Shown here: piece by piece, positions 2,759 to 24,720 of the stretch | Layout of the letters: the number at the start of each line of letters is the position of its first letter | How positions within the stretch are numbered: the stretch's first letter is position 1 | Source of the DNA: an uncultured Candidatus Saccharibacteria bacterium | GTDB lineage: Bacteria; Patescibacteriota; Dojkabacteria; SC72 | DNA length: 27,356 nt | Direction: 5' to 3' | Assembly: GCA_964350615.1 (NCBI GenBank) | Contig: CAYGKF010000001.1 | Location: 1-27,356, forward strand | Notes under the pieces: generated by a model | What the model saw: only the letters and a program-made list of their open reading frames with translations | Told to the model about the DNA's origin: nothing | The model's database searches: none | Translations under genes and position numbers: made by a program

Positions 2759-5700
2759 TTAAAACTTCTTTAGCCATTTTTTTGTTTGTTGATTGTTTGC
2801 TATTGTTTTATTTAGAATAACTGTATTATTGGTCTCTCCATCATTAACGATAATCTTAACAGGAATATTTCCTTCAGAATTTTTAATATATTCCTTTAGA
2901 GAAGCAATTTCTTCTTCTGTATGTAATGGGGTAATTCTAAATGTTATTCCGTCAAATTTAGAAGAGTGTTTTTTTTCATCTACATATTTAGCTTTTTGAA
3001 CTATTATGCTTTTTTGGCCATCTCTTACATTTATTCTTCCTGCAATTAGCATAGGTTTATTCTCTGCTAAAGCATCTTTAATTTCCTTATATGTTCTGGG
3101 AAATACCACGGCTTCTGTTTTAGCAGTTTTGTCCTCTATTGTTAAAAATGCCATTACATCCCCTTTTTTGGTGGTAATTTTTCTAACTTTAGTTACCATT
3201 ACTCCTAATACTAAAAGATCGTTGTTCTTTTTGTCTTCTAATGCTTCTGTTAAATTAATTGCATTTCTTTTTTCGAAAAACTCCCGTAGGTTGTCTAAAG
3301 GATGACTAGAGAAATAAAGGCCTAGGAGTTCTTTCTCCCATTGTAGTATTTGAGGTGTTTCCGCTTTTATGTCTGAGGGAAGGGAAGTTTTTTCTATTGT
3401 TTGTTTTTTATCACCATTTCCATTCATAGAATTATTCATAGCAAAGATGTCTATCTGACCCATCTCTTCTGTTTTTCTTGTTGATTTTGCTCTTTCGTAT
3501 ATGTCGCCTACTATGTCAAGTAGTGCTCCTCTATCTCCAAAGGCATCCATTGTGCCTGCCATAATGAGATACTCTATGGCTTTTTTATTTACCTTGTCAA
3601 AAACTCTGTGCACAAAATCATCTAGGTGTAAATATTTTCCATTTTCTTCTCTTTCCTTTACAACATCTTTAACTAGTTCGTTGCCTACATTTTTGATACC
3701 ACCTAAACCAAACCTAATGCTTCTTTCGTCTTCTACGTTAAAGTAAAAGTCGCTTTTATTAATGTCAGGAGGTAATACCTCTATTCCTAATCTTTCACAC
3801 TCTCCTAGGTCTAAAATTACTCTGTCGAATTTGTCAAGATCCCCTTCTAAGAGAGCAGCCATATATTCTAATGGATAATTGGCTTTAAGATATGCTGTCC
3901 AATAGGCTATAGTGGCATAGGATGCACTGTGTGCTTTATTAAAACCGTAATTGGCAAACTGAAGAAGTTTTTCCCATATTTCTTCCATATCTTCTTTCTT
4001 ATGTCCTTTTTTTACACCTCCCTGAACAAAGGCTGGCTTTTCTGCTTTCATTACGTCTAATTTCTTCTTTCCCATTGCCCTTCTTAGAATGTCTGCAGCT
4101 CCTAGAGAGTATCCTGCTACTACCTGGGCTATCTTCATAACCTGCTCTTGGTAAGAAATAACTCCGTTGGTAACCGAAAGTATAGGTTCTAAGTCCTTTA
4201 TTATGTAGTCTGGTTTTTGTTTTCCCTTTTTAACATCAGCATAATCTGAAATGAATTGCATAGGACCAGGTCTATATGCAGCTAGAATGTATGATATGTC
4301 CTCCATAGTTTCGGGTTCTAGCATTCGAATTGTTCTTTTCATACCTTCACTTTCTAATTGAAAAAGGCCTACAGTATGTCCAGATTTAATAAGTTTGTAT
4401 GCCTTTTCGTCATTTGGGTCTATGGTTACTAAGTCTATTTTCACACCCTTTCCTTCTTCGATCTTTTTAAGGGCAGATCCAATGATATGTAGGTTTCTAA
4501 GTCCTAGAAAGTCAAACTTCATTAAACCTACAGATTCTATATCTGACATTTCGTATTGACTCATCCCTATACCTTCTCCATGAGCATCTCTTTGTATTGG
4601 AACGTAATCTACTACTGGATTTGGAGTAATGATTACACCACACGCATGAGTAGAGACTCCTCTACAGAGCCCTGAAACTTTTCTTACAACCTCTGCTAAA
4701 TGTCTTGTTTTATCTGTAGATCTAATTATTTGGGCAAATTCAGGGTTATGCTCTAGCATATAGTCTATGCCTTTAGTTTTACCAAAAACTATCTCAACCA
4801 TTTTAGAAAGCTCATCTGCTATTTCTAAATCTACATCTATTACCCTTGCAACATCTCTAATTGCTTGTCTGGTTTGTAGTTTACTGAATGTTCCTATTTG
4901 TTTTACATTCTCTATTCCATACTTTTCTATTGTGTAGTTCATAACCTCATCTCTTCTTTTATCTGCAATATCTATGTCAAAATCTGGAGGGCTAGGTCTT
5001 TCAGGATTAAGAAATCTCTCAAAGTAAAGCTCCCAAGATATTGGCTCTATGTCAGTAATTTCTGTTGCATACGCTATTACAGAACCACATCCTGAACCTC
5101 TCATACCAACTACAATGTCATTGTCTTTGCAGAATTTTATAATATCTCTAACAACGAGGAAGTAGTCATCGTAACCTTTGTCATGAATTATTTTAAGTTC
5201 GTAATCAGCTCTTTCTTTGAGTTCTTTAGTTGCTCCTCCATATCTATTTTCAAGCCCCTCGTATGTAAGTTCTTTTAAATAATCTTTGGCAGTTTTGTCT
5301 TTAGGAAGATCTGGGAAAGGTATTTGTACTCTACCAAAGGTAATGTCATACTCTTCTATTCTTTCTGCTATCTTCTGAGTGTTCTCAATAGCCTCTGGAA
5401 TATCTTCAAACAACTTCTCCATCTCTTCTGGAGTTTTTACATAAAATTCATTAGTGGGCATCCTTCTTCTTTCAGGATCATTTATGGTGTAACCATCACT
5501 TATACACCAAAGAATTTCTTGGATTTCTGCATCCTCTTTGTTTAGGTAGTGAGAGTCGCAAGTAGCTACTAATGAAAGGTCTAATTCTTTAGCTACTTTA
5601 ATTAAACCTTCATTAACAATTTCTTGTTCCTCCATTCCATTTCTCTGAAGTTCAATATAGAAATTATCTTTAAATAATTTCTTGTATTCCTTTGCTCTTT

Positions 5701-18265: not shown

Positions 18266-21200
18266 ATGAGAAAATTTTTCAAGAGGTTTCCTTTTTACAA
18301 GGTATTTGTTACCTTGTTTATTTCTTTGTACACACTACTACCTTCAGTACAGGCTGTGGGTGTTGTTGTGAAAGACTATGCATCTGAGGATGTTACTGTA
18401 GAGACAGAGATTGATACAGAGAATCAGGAGCTAGAAGTAGATACTAGCGAGGATATATTGGATGAGGGTATTTCTGATCCTGAATGGATTGTTAATCCAG
18501 AATTAGAAGAAGATACAGAAGAGGAAGTTGAAGAGGAGGCAGATGAGCCTCTTTTTGTTTATGAGGATGGGGTATATACAGTGTTTAATGTAATAGAGGG
18601 TGAGGAGTATGTTTATCCTAGTAATGATAACTTAAGGATAGAGTTTACGTCAGTTACAGAGGATGGAAATTTGGTTATTGAGAGGGTTGTGTTAACAGAG
18701 GAAGAGAAAGAAAAATTAAATACTTCTGATAATTATGGTTGGGATATTACTTCTAGTATGAGTAATGGTTCTTTTACATATAATCTTACACTTCCTAATA
18801 CATTAGGTAATGATGTAGAGGTTGTATATACAGAGGATGGAGAGAATTATAATAAGCTAGAGGCTATAGTTAATGAAGATGTAATACATATTTATGGGTT
18901 GGAGCATTTTACAACATTTGTAGTGGTTAGTCCTGGAAATGATCCTTCTAAACAAATAGATTGTGATGCTGTTAAACTTGGATCAACCACAGGGACAACT
19001 TGTTTTGATACCATTCAAGGAGCCATTAATGCCGCTAGTGGTGGAGAGACTATTTATGTTGGAGCAGGGACATATGAAGAACCAAATGGACTAAATATAA
19101 CAGAAAGCATAACAATTACAGGTTCCGGAGAAAATCAAACTATTGTAAAAATTAGTAGACCCTCCGGAGGATACGGTATACAAACTTCAAGTGATTTAAA
19201 TCTAGAATTAGTAATGAGAAATCTTAGTTTTGAAGCAGTATCCGGTGTTTCTAATTTCTTTTTCCACATTGCACACAACGCTTCCTTTACTTTAGAAAAC
19301 TCTACTGTAACAGGTATGGGTAGGAATTATTATTCATCTGGAGCACAAGAGTGGGGCAATACTGTTGGAGGTGTAGATATCATTAATGTAAAAAGTGCTT
19401 TTTTGAACAATGTTACTGTAAGAGAAACAAGTAGAAATGCTGTATCTTTTTCTGCAGTAAGAAATATCAATGTAGAAGATATAACTATAGAAGATAATGG
19501 AGCAAGAGAAGGTTCCGCAGGAATTGCTATATATAACAGGTCTGAGTACCTTCCAAATAATCCAGAATATATCTCTATAAATAGAGGTTTAATTACTGGT
19601 TCTCCTATAGGGATGAATTTAGGGGGTACAAAAACAGGAGTTGACTTAGGGGTAGTTTCTGGAGATGACATAAAGAATCTCTCTTTTGTAAATAATCAAG
19701 TACAGGCTATTGCTTCTCCAGATGAAGCTAAGACATTATTAGAAAATAACACATTTGATAAAGCTGTTGTTGTTAGAAAGAACCCAATAGTAGTACCTGT
19801 TATCTTTAGTAGTATACAGGATGCAATAGATGCTGCTGAAGATGGAGATACAATTTATGTAGACGTCGGTACTTATAATGAAAACATTGTTATCGACAAA
19901 GAACTTAGTCTTCAAGGTGAGGATAAAGATACAACTATTATAGATGGTGGAAAAAGCGGTAAAGTTGTGTCTATAGTTTCTGATAATGTATTGTTGTCTG
20001 GTTTTACAGTTATTAATTCAGGTAGTACGCCCCTTGAAGATGGGGCAATAGTACTTCAAGGTGCTAATCATTGTACGATTGAGGATAACATTGTAAGCAA
20101 TAACGGTGGTGTTGGAATCGGCTTACAACTATCAGATGGGAATACCATTCAAAATAACACCCTTGACAATAACAATATTGCCGGCATCGGTTTGCTTGGT
20201 TCGTCAAACAACACTGTTCAGTTGAATGAATCTAGAAATACACGCTCAATGTCGGGTCAATTTGGTTATGGTTTAATAATTGATAATTTTGAAGGGACTA
20301 ACCCACCTACAACTACTATTTTTTCAAAAAATAATGTAATTGGAAGTTCAGAGGTAGATTTAAACAATGGACCCAATACTTTTGCGGATAATGAAGGTGA
20401 TGGTATCTACATTGGTTGGGGATGTGATAATAATAGTATTGTTAATAACATCATTGATCGTAATGGTAATGATGGTATTTATTTATGGAAGTCAGGGACA
20501 AATCAAATTATTAATAATGAAGTAAGCGAGAATCAAGAAGCGGGTATTCAGCTTATGGCTAGCCCGAATAATACAATTTCAGGAAACACTATTGTGAACA
20601 GTAACATCGGTGTATGGCTTAGAAGTGGTTGGACTCAATATAAACCACATCAGGCGGATCATCTAGCTATGTCGGAGAACAATGACATTACTAATAATAA
20701 TATTTATGGCAACAGTGTTTTTGGAATAAAATATGAGCAAAATGATTACGAATATGATGATGGTATTTCCATTGACGCCACCCTAAACTGGTGGGGTCAT
20801 ATAACTGGTCCCTCTGGAGAAGGTAGTGGTCACGGAGATAAGGTAAGTACTAACGTTACATATCAAGAATGGTTATGTGAACCCTATAAGACCGGTTGGT
20901 ATAGTATAGATGGCTCTTGTGCTATGCGTGATATTGGTTTTGGTTATGGGAGTGGAATAAACGGGGACGTTTCAGATCCGGGTATGTGTAATGTTTATAC
21001 CAATGACACATCCCTCCCTGGAAATAAAGCTCTACAAATTCTACAATTCCATACTCTATCTGGAGCAGAATATTACATGATCCAAGGATATAGATGGAAT
21101 GGTTCAAAATGGCTAGCCTCTGGGACTCCATATGATCCCGAAGAGTATGCTAATGGGAAACCAAATGTAGAGTTTAGTATTGACAATGGAGTTGCAACAT

Positions 21201-23194
21201 ATAAGACAGGAGCAACCAATGAAGGAATTTATACCTATCAAGTAATGGCTTATTCATTAAATGATAACCTCATGGGACTAAGCAATAGAATAATATCCAA
21301 CAACTATGATAATGCTTGTAAATTTACTGTCGACAGAACTTCTCCTCTTGCACCAGAACTTATTTCTCCAGAAGAACCCTTCTATACACAAGGCGTTTAC
21401 TTTGAACAAAAATGGGAAAGTGTTGAAGATGCTGTTAAATATGAATACAACAGCTGCTACAATGATCCAGATGAAGATGATGGTTACTGTAATTTGAAAT
21501 ATCCGCAAACTTTTATTGGTAAAGAGAATACGACAAAGAAAGTAAATGCTGAACAACCAGACAGCCACTTCTGGTGGAGAGTAAGAGCACAAGATATAGC
21601 GGGAAACTGGAGTGAATGGAGTGAGGCTTGGGAAGTTATAATAGATAATACATCACCAATGGTAGAAATTACTTCACACACAAACGGACAATTGGTGCGA
21701 GGAACACAAACAGTACAAGGTATTGTTGAAGATTTTAACCTCTCACACTACTGGTTCGTAATCCATGATTCAAATGGTAAAAGAGTTGCAGGTCCTAATA
21801 TTGTTAAAAACTCTGGACCAATAGTAACACCTTCCTTTGAATGGAATACTAAAAATGTTGCAGATGGAATATATACTATTAAATTAGAAGCAAAAGACTT
21901 AGCAGATAATAAAGATAGTGGCTCTGTACATTGGGTAGGAGTTAGCGTAGACAACACCCCTCCAACTGTTTCTAACATATCCATAGAAAAGGATGGAAAC
22001 CCTGCTACTCAAATTAAAAAGGGTGACATTTTAATTATAACAGCAACAGTTACAGATGATTATGGTGGTGTAAAAGCTGTATCCACTGATTTTAGCTTTA
22101 ACAGTACTTACTCAAGTAGACCATCACCAACCAGTATTGGAATGAAACACCAAGGTTCAGGGATATACAAAGCTGAATACACAGTTCCAGAGACGTGGGA
22201 TACAGATCAGATATTTATAACTGTAGCTGCTAGAGATAAACTCGACAATTATTCTGGTTATAGGAATCTTGCAGAACAATTAATCGTAGACAACACCCCT
22301 CCCGTAACTGAAATACAGGGAGAACAAAGTTACACATATACCAATGAGGCAATCTTCATAGAAGGAATATCTACAGATGAAAATGGAGTAAGTCATGTAG
22401 ATCTCTACTACAGAGTTTCTGATTCCGAAGATCCTTGGACACCTATTGGAACATCTCCATTCATTAATAACCCTGCAGATGATTCTCCATTCAATTGGGA
22501 CTACAGTTGGACCCCAGACCAAGAAGGAACATATGACATTAAAGCATCTGCTACAGATATTGCAGGAAATGTTGAAGAAAGTGCCTACATATATGAAATT
22601 ACATATGATGAAACCAACCCTACCGTAACTCTACTTTCTCTAATCAATGGAATTTTACAGGACATACGAGCAGACGGAGGAATCTCAGGAGTTAAATCAA
22701 TAGAGGTTGGAATGAGTGATACTGGCCCATGGGAGACATATTCTTCAAATATGAACCTTAATACTTTTGTAGGTGGACAACCAGGTACATACACAGTATA
22801 TATTAGAATTGTAGACAACGCAGGAAACGAGACAATTCATGAAGTCACCTTCACCATACCATCACCTCCACCTACTACCGCAGAAGAAATCTTAGGTGCA
22901 ATAACAGGACCATTTACACCTCAACCTGCACAAGCTACAGGTATAGGAGGCTACCTCTTAGCTCAAACCATTGAAGAAGAAACAGAGGAAGAAGTAGAAG
23001 ATACTAAGGTTGAAGATACAGAAGATATTGAGGACGAAGATAAAGATGTAAGAGGTACAGAGGATGAAAATGATGTAGAAGAAGAACAAGAAAGTAGACC
23101 ATGGTGGATATATCCATTAATTATATTACCATTACTACTACTCTTCATAATACTTTGGAAAAGAAGAAAAGAAGAGGAAGAACCACAGTATTAA
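18266..23194 (+). CDS. Giant cell-surface protein: right-handed beta-helix (pectin-lyase/NosD-like) domains, Ig/FN3-like repeats and a C-terminal TM anchor
   Basis: Signal peptide; two TIQ.AI.AA..G.TIYV..GTY.E beta-helix caps; Asn-ladder repeats; five (V/I/Y)D.T.P Ig-linker motifs; RVRAQDIAGNWSEWS; acidic stalk; TM WWIYPLIILPLLLLFIILW followed by KRRK. Confidence 0.92.
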   Translation: MRKFFKRFPFYKVFVTLFISLYTLLPSVQAVGVVVKDYASEDVTVETEIDTENQELEVDTSEDILDEGISDPEWIVNPELEEDTEEEVEEEADEPLFVYEDGVYTVFNVIEGEEYVYPSNDNLRIEFTSVTEDGNLVIERVVLTEEEKEKLNTSDNYGWDITSSMSNGSFTYNLTLPNTLGNDVEVVYTEDGENYNKLEAIVNEDVIHIYGLEHFTTFVVVSPGNDPSKQIDCDAVKLGSTTGTTCFDTIQGAINAASGGETIYVGAGTYEEPNGLNITESITITGSGENQTIVKISRPSGGYGIQTSSDLNLELVMRNLSFEAVSGVSNFFFHIAHNASFTLENSTVTGMGRNYYSSGAQEWGNTVGGVDIINVKSAFLNNVTVRETSRNAVSFSAVRNINVEDITIEDNGAREGSAGIAIYNRSEYLPNNPEYISINRGLITGSPIGMNLGGTKTGVDLGVVSGDDIKNLSFVNNQVQAIASPDEAKTLLENNTFDKAVVVRKNPIVVPVIFSSIQDAIDAAEDGDTIYVDVGTYNENIVIDKELSLQGEDKDTTIIDGGKSGKVVSIVSDNVLLSGFTVINSGSTPLEDGAIVLQGANHCTIEDNIVSNNGGVGIGLQLSDGNTIQNNTLDNNNIAGIGLLGSSNNTVQLNESRNTRSMSGQFGYGLIIDNFEGTNPPTTTIFSKNNVIGSSEVDLNNGPNTFADNEGDGIYIGWGCDNNSIVNNIIDRNGNDGIYLWKSGTNQIINNEVSENQEAGIQLMASPNNTISGNTIVNSNIGVWLRSGWTQYKPHQADHLAMSENNDITNNNIYGNSVFGIKYEQNDYEYDDGISIDATLNWWGHITGPSGEGSGHGDKVSTNVTYQEWLCEPYKTGWYSIDGSCAMRDIGFGYGSGINGDVSDPGMCNVYTNDTSLPGNKALQILQFHTLSGAEYYMIQGYRWNGSKWLASGTPYDPEEYANGKPNVEFSIDNGVATYKTGATNEGIYTYQVMAYSLNDNLMGLSNRIISNNYDNACKFTVDRTSPLAPELISPEEPFYTQGVYFEQKWESVEDAVKYEYNSCYNDPDEDDGYCNLKYPQTFIGKENTTKKVNAEQPDSHFWWRVRAQDIAGNWSEWSEAWEVIIDNTSPMVEITSHTNGQLVRGTQTVQGIVEDFNLSHYWFVIHDSNGKRVAGPNIVKNSGPIVTPSFEWNTKNVADGIYTIKLEAKDLADNKDSGSVHWVGVSVDNTPPTVSNISIEKDGNPATQIKKGDILIITATVTDDYGGVKAVSTDFSFNSTYSSRPSPTSIGMKHQGSGIYKAEYTVPETWDTDQIFITVAARDKLDNYSGYRNLAEQLIVDNTPPVTEIQGEQSYTYTNEAIFIEGISTDENGVSHVDLYYRVSDSEDPWTPIGTSPFINNPADDSPFNWDYSWTPDQEGTYDIKASATDIAGNVEESAYIYEITYDETNPTVTLLSLINGILQDIRADGGISGVKSIEVGMSDTGPWETYSSNMNLNTFVGGQPGTYTVYIRIVDNAGNETIHEVTFTIPSPPPTTAEEILGAITGPFTPQPAQATGIGGYLLAQTIEEETEEEVEDTKVEDTEDIEDEDKDVRGTEDENDVEEEQESRPWWIYPLIILPLLLLFIILWKRRKEEEEPQY
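21946..22302 (+). repeat. Exact 18-bp direct repeat CGTAGACAACACCCCTCC (21946-21963 and 22285-22302)
   Basis: Both copies read directly; 339 bp apart and in frame (VDNTPP). Confidence 0.85.
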
Positions 23195-23214
23195 TATATA
23201 AAAAATACTGCCAG

Positions 23215-23247
23215 AAGAGACACAGGTAAAACTGTGTCTCTTTCTTT
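23215..23247 (+). terminator. Intrinsic terminator after the giant surface protein gene
   Basis: Perfect 11-bp stem AAGAGACACAG-GTAAAA-CTGTGTCTCTT followed by TCTTT. Confidence 0.85.
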
Positions 23248-23300
23248 ATGTAACCCCTTTAAAGCAAAAACTATGGGTTTATTTCAGTGCCTTTTTATTA

Positions 23301-23416
23301 TATAATACCCCTGTTTATACCTAACCCACAGGGATTTAGGAACAATATAAACGATCTTTAAAAATGCATGGTTCTTTACGCTTATCAACTCACCACTACT
23401 ATCACCCACGGAGGTG
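23301..23416 (+). promoter_or_regulatory. Promoter/leader of the orphan gene: TATAAT, hairpin and strong SD
   Basis: TATAAT 23301-23306; hairpin CCTAACCC-ACA-GGG(AT)TTAGG 23320-23340; GGAGGTG 23410-23416, 5 nt before ATG 23422. Confidence 0.55.
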
Positions 23417-23421
23417 TAAAA

Positions 23422-23934
23422 ATGTTTGTAAAAAACTTTTTCAAAAATCTTGGGGAGAAGATAAAAAACTTCCTTTCGAAAAGCAAAAATTTTTTCGAAA
23501 ACATTTGGAGAGAAACTAAAAACTTTTTCTCAAAACACAAGTCAGTATTCCAGGACATTCAAAAAGTATTACTTGTACTACTTTTGATTGCATTTGGGAT
23601 ACTCCAGCTTTACCAATACTCCGAAATCCTTCTCATGGGACTCGAAGAAAATTCTACTATTGGAATAGCCATTGCTATCACCGGATACTTCTTCGTTGCT
23701 GGATACACCTACTGGTTACTATTCCACAGGTCACATAATAGCGATTTTCGGAGCCTGGAGTACCATATAAGAGATATTAGACTGCAATTACAATTGTACA
23801 AAGCTAATCTCTCATCGAGGGATTTCCAGATACATAACATCGGACTTGACCAAAAAATGTTTAATTTGGACCTTCAACACCAACTCAGAAAAATTGAGCG
23901 AAAGCTTGATGAACTCCGAGTGAAGGAAAAATAA
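23422..23934 (+). CDS. Orphan 170-aa membrane protein (KNFF-repeat amphipathic N-terminus, two hydrophobic helices, C-terminal coiled coil)
   Basis: Start moved from 23368 to 23422 on the basis of the GGAGGTG SD; no family recognised. Confidence 0.75.
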   Translation: MFVKNFFKNLGEKIKNFLSKSKNFFENIWRETKNFFSKHKSVFQDIQKVLLVLLLIAFGILQLYQYSEILLMGLEENSTIGIAIAITGYFFVAGYTYWLLFHRSHNSDFRSLEYHIRDIRLQLQLYKANLSSRDFQIHNIGLDQKMFNLDLQHQLRKIERKLDELRVKEK

Positions 23935-24004
23935 CAACTCTTAAAAAGAACCCTGCATAAACTCTTCGGCTAAGTGTCTTAGTAAACCTTGCCTTGGAGA
24001 AGAA

Positions 24005-24058
24005 GGTTAGGGGAGATAAATTAGTGGTTTTTACCATTCTAATATATCTCCTCTAACT
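24005..24058 (+). other. Long RNA hairpin (23 bp) abutting the ribozyme
   Basis: 14 bp (two G-U) 24005-24018/24045-24058, A-A mismatch, 5 bp, TT bulge, TGGT/ACCA, TTTT loop; no U-tract follows on the + strand. Confidence 0.8.
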
Positions 24059-24059
24059 A

Positions 24060-24111
24060 GTAAGTCATTTCTAAGAAATCTGATGAGCTTTTGAAATAAA
24101 GCGAAACTTAC
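24060..24111 (+). ncRNA. Hammerhead ribozyme, type III
   Basis: GTAAGT-C-[ATTTC TAA GAAAT]-CTGATGA-[GCTTT TGAAAT AAAGC]-GAA-ACTTAC. All core nucleotides are present, with stems I (5 bp), II (5 bp) and III (6 bp); GUC cleavage triplet 24064-24066. Confidence 0.92.
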
Positions 24112-24114
24112 ACT

Positions 24115-24142
24115 TTGCATAACCAATCTTTTGAGCTACAAT
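24115..24142 (+). promoter_or_regulatory. Promoter TTGCAT-N16-TACAAT, 5 nt upstream of ATG 24148
   Basis: Seen directly; lies immediately downstream of the ribozyme. Confidence 0.55.
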
Positions 24143-24147
24143 AAACA

Positions 24148-24720
24148 ATGCTCAAAACCAAAATAGCAAGAATAATATCAGAAATATCCAACGGCTTTAT
24201 GACTATGATACTAACCCCTGTTATAGCTATCCTAGTATCACCCTTAGACACACTAAATAAAACAATCTTTATTCTAACATACACCCTCTCCCCTATCCTC
24301 CCCTACTTTGTACTTAAAAAAATGGGTAAGGTTACCGACTATGAATTCACCAACAGAAAAGAAAGACCCCCTTACTTTTCTACCATCACAATAATCTTTG
24401 GCATACTCTTTCTACTTCTTACTACCTTTAATTTAGAAATGTTAACTAAGGTAACCCTAAACCTCTTCTTAATCTCCTCTGTCATTACACTAATTACATT
24501 CTTTTGGAAAATATCTGGACACATGACATACTCCACCATACTCTTTACCACCTTACTATTCCTCTTCCCTAATACACCTGCCCTCTTCGCTCTCTTTCTT
24601 TTTACCCCCTTCATAGGATGGTCTAGAATAGCCCTTAAGAAACATGACTTAACTCAAGTAACCCTAGGAACCTTAATCCCTCTTACCATTTCCATTCTAA
24701 TTTACTGGGGTTTTTGGTAG
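24148..24720 (+). CDS. PAP2-superfamily-like integral membrane protein
   Basis: Multiple TM helices; WKISGH (motif 2-like) and WSRIALKKH (motif 3-like). Confidence 0.7.
   Translation: MLKTKIARIISEISNGFMTMILTPVIAILVSPLDTLNKTIFILTYTLSPILPYFVLKKMGKVTDYEFTNRKERPPYFSTITIIFGILFLLLTTFNLEMLTKVTLNLFLISSVITLITFFWKISGHMTYSTILFTTLLFLFPNTPALFALFLFTPFIGWSRIALKKHDLTQVTLGTLIPLTISILIYWGFW

Follow-up and report, generated by a model that had tools for sequence, protein, structure and literature searches.

The question raised by the segment from 23250 to 24122 of the window (the whole stretch of DNA analysed here, 27,356 nt in length) is whether it forms a unit of its own, where such a unit might have come from and how its transcript might end. 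An earlier note, made from the letters alone, had described the segment as self-contained, and that observation is confirmed: a promoter-like -10 box is followed, in order, by a conserved leader of about 110 nt, a Shine-Dalgarno sequence, an open reading frame (that of protein P0001) and a structured 3' UTR, and the unit closes with a hairpin of 52 nt and a hammerhead ribozyme of type III (Table 1). The neighbors of the unit are housekeeping genes; the 27-kb contig carries those for UvrC, DnaE, iPGM, L19, a UvrD-like helicase, the surface protein, PAP2 and GatA. A gene for a regulator was not seen at the locus. The host is an ultra-small CPR bacterium (Dojkabacteria).

The unit had been placed between a strong terminator and the next promoter, and both are found. 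The terminator is near-identical in the closest relative (L070) and conserved in G008. Relatives, among them genomes with nothing at the site, have kept the promoter of the PAP2-like gene, and it is at this promoter that homology with the empty-site genomes restarts. The mRNA of the PAP2-like gene is likely to be leaderless. A scan for terminators between the ORF and PAP2 found no intrinsic terminator.

Table 1. Features of the unit and of its two borders, with positions in the window.
Feature	Position	Strand	Remarks
Intrinsic terminator of the upstream 1642-aa surface-protein gene	23214..23243	+	Left border of the unit; 12-bp stem with 5 GC pairs, T-rich tail
CTATGGG, local form of the CCTAT..ATAGG palindromic motif	23271..23277	+	Motif lies upstream of the -10 box in every cassette; operator-like
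TATAAT, putative -10 box of the cassette promoter	23301..23306	+	Perfect match, read from sequence
Predicted stem-loop at the 5' end of the leader	23313..23352	+	MFE and centroid folds
5' box ATGCATGGTTCTTT	23364..23377	+	Complementary to the 3' box
Shine-Dalgarno sequence GGAGGTG	23410..23416	+	5 nt ahead of ATG 23422
ORF of P0001, 170 aa	23422..23934	+	Family alignment, relatives search, helical model, hydrophobic segment, dN/dS
3' box AAAGAACCCTGCAT	23945..23958	+	Complementary to the 5' box
Small 3' UTR hairpin CTAAG-TGT-CTTAG	23969..23983	+	Compensatory changes in relatives
Long hairpin	24006..24057	+	Arms 89% complementary; ends 1 nt short of hammerhead stem III
Type III hammerhead, RF00008	24059..24112	+	Predicted cut between C24066 and A24067
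Promoter of the PAP2-like gene, TTTGCA-17-TACAAT	24114..24142	+	Right border of the unit; 5 nt upstream of ATG 24148

The perfect TATAAT of the putative cassette promoter lies in a block, TATATAATA, that shows no variation across 11 homologous loci. A consensus promoter scan did not report it, because its -35 region is weak. The claim that the unit has its own promoter rests on the invariant -10 box and not by the scan, and the transcription start shares the putative status of the promoter. A T7-like promoter, read from CTATAGG, was rejected: the short palindromic core alone is conserved. Other loci maintain the stem at the start of the leader with different letters: G008 and most of the rest have CCTTG..CAAGG, and L070 also has a sequence of its own. 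An N-terminal extension of the ORF, or an upstream ORF, beginning at ATG 23364 or 23368 was rejected as a conserved coding feature, because the frame differs among species, with a stop after 7 codons in G008 and ATT in place of ATG in L047 and L055.

The GGAGG of the Shine-Dalgarno sequence is kept in 10 of the 11 homologues. As the note had remarked, no other gene in the window is preceded by the full sequence: P0001 is the only one of the 21 genes with GGAGGTG, the heptamer occurs on the + strand just once more, inside the surface-protein gene, and GGAGG is found within 25 nt of the start in none of the 20 other genes. Most of these have instead TATAAT 5–8 nt upstream of ATG, which suggests that they yield leaderless mRNAs. 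In the cassette genes, -10 boxes are of the TTTTGGTATAAT type and the Shine-Dalgarno sequences are strong.

P0001 begins with amphipathic KNFF repeats, continues with a two-helix membrane hairpin and ends in a helix resembling a coiled coil; the AlphaFold2 model is all-helical but of low confidence (pLDDT 69, pTM 0.33). The higher CpG frequency of the ORF, earlier judged by eye, is real (observed/expected 0.75, with 12 CpG in 513 nt, vs 0.18–0.55 in the other genes and a mean of 0.32 in the window), at a GC content that is the same as that of the neighbors, and it recurs in the orthologues from three other species (0.85–1.0). The protein was called an orphan, which holds insofar as P0001 and ten other cassette proteins gave only sub-threshold noise against Pfam and PHROGs. 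It is not a strict orphan, however, as it belongs to a tiny family of its own, with 20 matches among 1.84 billion representative proteins. The family has dN/dS values of 0.11–0.42, and synonymous sites are saturated between the ORF and its orthologues in sister species, which argues against a recent acquisition.

The 5' and 3' boxes of Table 1 are 14 nt long and 93% complementary, and the same pair is present in G008 and in other A-type units (those with P0001). The two boxes pair in the MFE and centroid folds of the mRNAs of both the window genome (G000) and G008 (z about -6.3), and in L070 a C-to-T change in the 3' box turns a G-C pair into G-U. This conserved complementarity of the two UTRs is new. 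Because the boxes are conserved in sequence, true covariation is sparse, and they could be inverted repeats at the DNA level rather than partners in RNA. Compensatory changes preserve the small hairpin: its arms read CTAAA..TTTAG in G008 and L058, and GTTAA..TTAAC in L067. At the base of the long hairpin is the conserved GTTAGRGGAGA / TCTCCYCTAAC; 96% of the cells of its alignment are paired, with 3 covarying pairs in the basal stem, and in each of five genomes it occurs at this one locus only. In the leader and 3' UTR, a search of Rfam with positions 23150–24200 at a permissive E-value brought up no further RNA family that was credible.

The hammerhead, which the note had also recognized, matches RF00008 over its full length (1–54 of 54) with a score of 57.6 bits (E 1.5e-10), above the gathering score of 48.5 bits. 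It is the only copy in the genome, and none of 14 control genomes has a match. Judged by the core expected of a hammerhead (C3-U4-G5-A6-N7-G8-A9, G12-A13-A14, the pair A15.1-U16.1 and the cleavage-site nucleotide H17), it is complete, with CUGAUGA at 24080–24086, GAA at 24103–24105, the pair A24106-U24065 and a GUC ending at C24066. Across 22 copies the core is invariant except for N7 (U or C). Stems I, II and III are 100% paired in the 22 distinct copies, stem III being open, and compensatory pairs occur in stem I (106–112, GC/CG) and stem II (128–137, CG/UA/UG), stem III being without variation. The stem I pair is flipped even with respect to L070. These pairs were counted on the canonical hammerhead structure, since RNAalifold mis-paired stem I when applied to the junction alignment. 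The element is 90–95% identical, although the synonymous sites of the adjoining ORF are saturated. The intact core and covarying stems indicate that selection acts on the RNA.

ORF, 3' UTR, hairpin and hammerhead occur together at the syntenic site in G008, G010 and G012, and also in metagenome loci (where 8 of the 22 matches to the junction pattern, inside an unrelated coding region, were discarded). Sister species have 1–6 tandem units at this site, upstream of PAP2-gatA, and the units encode unrelated small membrane proteins, alike in their two-helix membrane hairpin and in a C-terminal tail that is charged or coiled. The number of hammerheads per homologous locus is 2 in G008 and G010, 3 in G012, 4 in L068 and 5 in L065, as compared to 1 in the window, and distant members of the P0001 family head arrays of 4 and 5 hammerheads with one small gene before each. 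Linkage of ribozyme and ORF extends to other genomes, as the reading of the earlier note implied: hairpin and hammerhead follow the ORF in 11 of the 13 distinct family members with readable downstream sequence, and the other 2 have the hairpin alone. What lies upstream of a hammerhead is constant (hairpin and small gene) and what lies downstream varies, the next gene in AnMBR475 not being PAP2. Hairpins without a hammerhead are found in the terminal cassettes of G010 and G012 and at the distant loci L067 and L069, so the ribozyme is dispensable in some positions.

The empty site that had been proposed as a check exists in six genomes of the same genus (G001, G002, G003, G006, G007 and G013), where PAP2 lies directly behind the upstream gene, with neither ORF nor ribozyme. 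The PAP2 tree gives no resolved branching, leaving the GatA tree alone informative on the history of the cassettes. In it, the window genome clusters with four of the empty-site genomes, and at least two gains or losses are therefore needed. Cassette content differs among relatives (A-B-C in G010, A-C in L058, A-B in L060) with alignment breakpoints at the hairpin-hammerhead junctions, and within a genome the copies of the junction element are near-identical. It is at this direct repeat of about 110 nt that arrays gain and lose cassettes, most likely by homologous recombination.

The unit is thus an accessory insertion, and to that extent the idea of an acquired module survives. An origin from a phage, plasmid or retroelement is not supported. 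Searches of 50,697 phage records with P0001 (by tblastn) and with the 3' UTR and hammerhead (by blastn) found nothing, nor did the junction pattern in viral contigs; no integrase (IntI) is encoded on the 27-kb contig, and the single tyrosine recombinase (PF00589) of the genome lies on another contig (C91). Neither a reverse transcriptase (RVT_1) nor RtcB was found in the genome, which is 90% complete, and the neighbors, as noted above, are housekeeping genes.

An explanation that I consider probable, taking its three parts together, is that the unit is the one-unit version of an array whose copy number varies among species in part of one Dojkabacteria genus; that each cassette is an autonomous expression unit (palindromic motif and -10 box, leader, strong Shine-Dalgarno sequence, one small membrane protein, a hairpin of about 52–60 nt and a type III hammerhead); and that self-cleavage after C24066, as the most likely role of the ribozyme, would set a hairpin-protected 3' end of the mRNA and uncouple the unit from downstream transcription. 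Transcription would begin at the cassette promoter and, because no intrinsic terminator intervenes before PAP2, would continue. The hammerhead, to judge from its intact, covarying core, would then fold and cut after C24066. The cassette mRNA would end 9 nt past the long hairpin in a 2',3'-cyclic phosphate, giving it a defined, protected 3' end, and any transcript running on into PAP2-gatA, or in relatives into the cassette that follows, would be severed and start with a 5'-OH. In A-type units, the 5'-terminal stem-loop and the pairing of the UTRs would probably add stability or regulation. The layout is compatible with the earlier proposal that self-cleavage sets the mRNA end. Strictly, there is no need for polycistronic processing if, as seems to be the case, every unit is transcribed from a promoter of its own. 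There is precedent in vitro for the cutting of polycistronic RNA by hammerheads that flank single genes (PMC3088659). The biological role of bacterial hammerheads is still open, the current hypothesis being that they process mRNA (PMC6765202).

The ribozyme may conceivably serve mainly the RNA downstream, trimming read-through so that PAP2-gatA or the next cassette receives a defined 5'-OH leader that insulates or stabilizes it, in the manner of RiboJ. The 3' fragment would indeed retain most of the ribozyme, which ends 2 nt from the -35 hexamer of the PAP2 promoter and which, in arrays, always lies ahead of the promoter of the next cassette. I consider this unlikely: PAP2 has its promoter 5 nt from ATG and no Shine-Dalgarno sequence, with or without a hammerhead, so that a processed leader of 81 nt would be poorly translated; it is the downstream gene that varies and the upstream hairpin and small gene that are constant; and terminal cassettes lacking a hammerhead precede the same PAP2. 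The toxin- or holin-like membrane protein under RNA-level control that the note had offered is compatible with the processing model, and P0001 is predicted to be small, helical and membrane-bound with a charged tail, its mRNA to be unusually structured, with closure of 5' and 3' ends; one cassette protein of L065 has a sub-threshold resemblance to Phage_holin_2 (E 0.028, 15 bits, as compared to a cut-off of 32). This too seems improbable, as no match to Pfam, PHROGs or phages rises above threshold, no adjacent endolysin, lysis gene or antitoxin partner was found at the locus, antisense promoter-like sites there are not above chance, and a length of 170 aa with a long amphipathic N-terminus is atypical of holins and of type I toxins. 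The purifying selection seen among species suits any functional protein.

Two other readings make the junction something besides a device for processing mRNA. If it were primarily a site for recombination of DNA, in a cassette system that resembles an integron but does without an integrase, and RNA activity were secondary, then breakpoints of cassette indels exactly at the junction, the variation of cassette number and content among species and the near-identity of junction copies within a genome would all be expected, and the base of the hairpin, GTTAG..CTAAC, has what I take to be a superficial likeness to integron core sites. However, the arm order is the opposite of that of attC, whose 5' arm is RYYYAAC and whose 3' arm is GTTRRRY: on either strand the hairpin runs 5' GTTAGRGG ... 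YCTAAC 3'. The lack of an integrase on the contig (the one tyrosine recombinase being elsewhere), the confinement of the hairpin to one locus and the selection on RNA evident from the core and stems also make this a rather poor candidate, particularly as the indels need nothing more than homologous recombination between 110-nt repeats. Very unlikely, in my judgment, is that the units represent, or descend from, mobile RNAs bounded by ribozymes, like retrozymes or viroids, that are excised, circularized and possibly translated or re-integrated. The tandem hammerheads of relatives are 457–505 nt apart, and cleavage by two hammerheads yields 5'-OH and 2',3'-cyclic-phosphate ends fit for ligation. 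Circular products were raised as a possibility by Perreault (2011; PMC3088659), but circles were not detected there. The single hammerhead of the window leaves nothing to excise; the unit has no second ribozyme to bound it, neither RtcB nor a reverse transcriptase was found in the 90%-complete genome, and the hairpin is not dispersed; and the units, found at one chromosomal locus, have different ORFs, DNA promoters and no match in viral contigs. A broader proposal, which I hold to be doubtful, is that CPR bacteria at large have a gene-cassette system without an integrase and that the junction is its working module. The element of about 110 nt would then both punctuate transcripts and serve to capture, lose and shuffle genes for small membrane proteins, with ligated or circularized ribozyme-bounded RNA intermediates even possible.

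The locus offers a compact natural test system: the window has a single gene with a single hairpin and ribozyme, and the variants in sister species (0 to 5 ribozymes, hairpin-only ends) separate the contributions of hairpin, ribozyme and recombination junction. It also indicates that, in a genome that appears mostly leaderless, accessory genes for membrane proteins may follow a different logic of expression, with a long leader, a strong Shine-Dalgarno sequence and, as predicted, pairing of 5' and 3' UTRs and a 3' end made by a ribozyme.

Several known systems resemble the locus in part. Integron arrays likewise consist of single-gene cassettes that vary among strains, with an imperfect hairpin and a conserved base at each junction, where gain and loss occur. 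Unlike them, no IntI stands beside the array here, the cassettes have their own promoters and the junction holds an intact, covarying ribozyme. Phage morons (autonomous units of promoter, gene and terminator) are similarly self-contained, with atypical signals, between conserved neighbors and with an empty site in a sister, but this unit has no phage context, and hairpin and ribozyme take the place of an intrinsic terminator at its 3' end. In the early genes of phage T7, RNase III sites between genes leave a stabilizing 3' hairpin. The likeness lies in an intercistronic cut, an upstream mRNA that ends in a stable hairpin and one site per gene, and the difference in that here the RNA would cut itself, beside the hairpin and not within it, leaving a 2',3'-cyclic phosphate and a 5'-OH.

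[quoted passage not shown] These, too, lie between genes on the same strand that vary in identity, and their proposed role is to cut long transcripts into single-gene mRNAs; several gene-flanking hammerheads are found at loci homologous to that of the window, with 2–5 in its relatives and one small gene before each. The window itself has one unit only, and its locus is chromosomal, in a CPR genome, among housekeeping genes and with no integrase or phage genes nearby. Here, moreover, every ribozyme is fused to a conserved long hairpin, and every gene encodes a small membrane protein and has its own promoter and Shine-Dalgarno sequence. With these differences, the cassette of the window is a clear new example of a known, still unexplained bacterial arrangement.

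The unit between the surface-protein gene and the PAP2-like gene is a self-contained cassette, as the earlier note had observed, and the interpretation offered there is partly supported. Its hammerhead is a full-length match in the window to Rfam family RF00008 (57.6 bits against a cut-off of 48.5, E 1.5e-10), with a complete catalytic core (CUGAUGA at 24080-24086, GAA at 24103-24105, and GUC) and a predicted cleavage site after C24066. By RF00008 search it is the sole hammerhead of the 716-kb genome (G000), and a terminator scan found no intrinsic terminator between the ORF and PAP2.

Features of the cassette and its borders (window coordinates)
Feature	Position	Strand or region	Remark
Intrinsic terminator of the 1642-aa surface-protein gene	23214-23243	+	left border
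Perfect TATAAT, putative cassette -10 box	23301-23306	+	predicted promoter
Leader, ~110 nt	between TATAAT and ORF	+	
5' box ATGCATGGTTCTTT	23364-23377	leader	
Shine-Dalgarno GGAGGTG	23410-23416	+	
ORF P0001, 170 aa	23422-23934	+	
3' box AAAGAACCCTGCAT	23945-23958	3' UTR	
Structured 3' UTR, 125 nt			ends in the 52-nt hairpin
Long hairpin, 52 nt	24006-24057	+	
Type III hammerhead	24059-24112	+	RF00008; starts one base past the hairpin
Promoter of the PAP2-like gene	24114-24142	+	right border

The strong Shine-Dalgarno sequence is indeed peculiar to the cassette gene, GGAGG lying at most 25 nt from the start in 1 of the 21 window genes. Most of these genes lack a Shine-Dalgarno sequence; instead, a TATAAT-like box precedes the ATG by 5-8 nt (e.g., in the genes starting at 58, 2726, 7233, 11721, 24148, 24732 and 26568). 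This is the signature of leaderless mRNAs and suggests that such mRNAs dominate in this genome, the cassette gene being the exception. The higher CpG frequency of the ORF, previously judged by eye, is borne out by an observed/expected ratio of 0.75, against 0.18-0.55 in the other genes and a window mean of 0.32, with no difference in GC content. In three other species the ratio is 0.85-1.0 in the orthologues and 0.07-0.56 in their neighbours; the excess belongs to the gene family. Synonymous sites are saturated between P0001 of G000 and its sister-species orthologues, and because the excess is kept across this divergence, it is no mark of recent arrival.

No Pfam or PHROG family was found for P0001, the membrane protein of the cassette. 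Out of 5.8 billion proteins, a word-indexed search returned P0001 itself and one relative, and a profile built from ten family members found 20 proteins at E <= 0.001 among 1.84 billion representatives. The family alignment (A2) conserves two hydrophobic helices and a C-terminal ERK(L/I)D.L helix, preceded by an N-terminal amphipathic KNFF repeat in 2-5 copies. Pairwise dN/dS values within the family are 0.11-0.42, and P0001 is therefore a real gene under purifying selection. Its AlphaFold2 model is all-helical, at low confidence (pLDDT 69, pTM 0.33). The repeat, KNFF(K/E)N..K(I)KNF, occupies residues 2-40 of P0001 (window 23425-23540), and in the closest relative, P0004 of locus L070, further KNFF repeats are supplied by an in-frame insertion of 54 nt.

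Among 61 and then 100 related genomes searched, above-threshold RF00008 matches occur only in five species, all of the window's own genus (G000, G008, G009, G010 and G012). There they lie upstream of PAP2-gatA, at the syntenic position, and are frequently tandem, with spacings of 457-489 nt. In the sister loci such units form arrays. The leading unit is in most cases a P0001 homologue whose leader and 3' UTR match those of the window cassette, and the units behind it encode small unrelated proteins (58-126 aa). By BLAST (E <= 1e-3), at least 13 sequence groups can be told apart among the cassette proteins; hydrophobic segments are common to all of them, and an acidic or coiled tail to most. 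Every cassette comprises a CCTAT..ATAGG palindrome, an extended -10 box of the TTTTGGTATAAT type, a strong Shine-Dalgarno sequence, an ORF, the same hairpin and the hammerhead. The ~110-nt hairpin-hammerhead junction was matched by pattern search in 6 stretches of genomes, drawn from 5 records; in metagenomes the genuine stretches number 14. At L068 and L065, distant P0001 family members head arrays with four and five hammerheads, respectively, and each small gene is followed by one. The hairpin was checked in five genomes and is confined there to the cassette locus. It stands without a complete hammerhead in the last units of the G010 and G012 arrays and at loci L067 and L069; such hairpin-only ends show that the hairpin has its own function and that loss of the ribozyme is possible.

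The palindrome lies 12-21 nt upstream of each cassette's -10 box (window 23271-23277; L021 5146-5160; in L065 and L068, 25-45 nt past each hammerhead). It looks like an operator, and no regulator gene is evident at the cassette locus. The same hairpin-hammerhead also follows a gene for a 62-63-aa membrane protein (L042 5389-5727, L022 1853-2307), itself directly behind a GT2 glycosyltransferase gene, which it overlaps in G009. In AnMBR475 the gene downstream of the junction encodes an S24/UmuD-like peptidase, not PAP2. Because of these two settings, the junction is not bound to the PAP2 site. In the metagenome locus L068 (4640-5200) PAP2 starts with ATA rather than ATG and its frame is apparently interrupted, indicating either a pseudogene or errors of an old draft assembly.

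The empty site that the earlier note had proposed as a check exists: in six other species of the genus (G001, G002, G003, G006, G007 and G013), only ~55 nt separate PAP2 from the preceding gene, and ORF, hairpin and ribozyme are all missing. Homology of G000 to these sites restarts immediately past the hammerhead. The unit is a genuine accessory cassette. In the GatA tree, G000 clusters with four empty-site species (support 98/98) and the remaining species with the ribozyme make up a clade of their own (100/99) adjoining the empty-site G003, so that at least two gains or losses are needed; the PAP2 tree gives no resolution. Related arrays differ by whole cassettes (A-B-C in G010, A-C in L058, A-B in L060), with alignment breakpoints exactly at the junctions. 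Homologous recombination between 110-nt direct repeats would give such breakpoints, and the hairpin-hammerhead copies within one genome are nearly identical. A gene of 47-58 aa (L019 rc 17-163, L020 rc 3933-4076, L032 1293-1445), with a hydrophobic N-terminus followed by (V/I)DTS(E/Q)DIL(S/T)EGISDP, adjoins the array upstream or, in the empty-site G002 and G007, lies directly upstream of PAP2; in G000 the motif is found inside the 1642-aa surface protein, near its N-terminus (window 18266-23194).

Selection on the RNA was assessed in an alignment (A1) of 22 distinct hairpin-hammerhead copies, with pairs counted on the canonical structure. Paired cells amount to 96%, against 28-49% with partners slid. 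In the hammerhead, pairing reaches 100% in each of the three stems, with one compensatory pair in stem I (GC/CG) and one in stem II (CG/UA); in the basal stem of the hairpin, three pairs covary. Stem I shows a C-G to G-C flip even in comparison with L070, to which the G000 cassette is most closely related (85% nucleotide identity). The element is 90-95% identical between species in which synonymous sites of the adjacent ORFs are saturated. The two UTR boxes are 93% complementary, and the orthologous pair is present in G008 and other P0001-type units; in the 3' box of L070, a C-to-T change makes a G-C pair G-U. When the whole processed mRNA is folded, from predicted start to cleavage site, the box helix closes the coding region in MFE and centroid folds of both G000 and G008 (z ~ -6.3, from 20 shuffles), along with a 5'-terminal stem-loop, a small 3' hairpin covarying between species and the long terminal hairpin. 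Since both boxes are conserved in sequence, they may also be a DNA-level inverted repeat.

The elements with their conservation, covariation and linkage, the lack of a terminator between ORF and PAP2 and the modular indels are matters of observation. The mRNA end is very probably set by self-cleavage, as had been proposed. The most economical reading is transcription from the cassette's own promoter with a 3' end made by the hammerhead. Transcription would meet no intrinsic terminator, the hammerhead would cleave after C24066, and the mRNA would end 9 nt past the stable hairpin with a 2',3'-cyclic phosphate, the read-through RNA being detached; the hairpin would be protective, and the UTR pairing may play a part.

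Outside the window's genus, 14 of 100 genomes of the family, from other genera, have a second, distinct class of type III hammerhead, which scores 26-44 bits (under the Rfam cut-off) and lies at ~1501-1590 of loci L006-L014 with the ribozyme oriented + (45-112 in L008, 671-728 in L010). This hammerhead is preceded by CACACGCU, usually behind a gene for a secreted or membrane protein of ~160-235 aa (several with a 'PFVVGSELGW'-like motif), and at several loci a terminator-like hairpin follows it; downstream, on the opposite strand, there is usually a GT2 glycosyltransferase gene.

The suggested phage-, plasmid- or retro-element-like origin was not borne out by any test run. The rest of the 27-kb contig codes for UvrC, DnaE, iPGM, ribosomal protein L19, a UvrD-like helicase, GatA and an M23 peptidase, with no integrase, transposase or phage gene found on it; the one tyrosine recombinase of G000 is on a different contig, and the junction pattern is absent from the viral contigs searched. 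That the junction is an integron-like DNA recombination site is quite improbable, no integrase having been found together with the arm order of attC. Still less probable is a mobile or circular RNA bounded by ribozymes: neither reverse transcriptase nor RtcB was found in the G000 genome (90% complete), and there is no ligase or reverse transcriptase with dispersed copies. That processing serves the downstream message is unlikely, there being no dependent downstream gene, and I consider it equally doubtful that P0001 is a toxin or holin under RNA control, as the earlier note ventured: nothing found marks it as a toxin, and neither a match to a toxin or holin family nor an antitoxin or lysis partner was found.

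A full-text search found no literature connecting hammerheads with Patescibacteria or Dojkabacteria. Processing of the cassette's own mRNA matches the standing hypothesis for bacterial hammerheads, which a 2019 review (PMC6765202) regards as still unproven, and the 5'-3' UTR complementarity is a new detail. The cassette is a compact system, with natural variants, in which the function of bacterial hammerheads can be tested. Perreault et al. (2011; PMC3088659) described several hammerheads that flank single genes in prophage regions, and polycistronic RNAs cleaved in vitro; the window unit belongs to that known gene-flanking arrangement.
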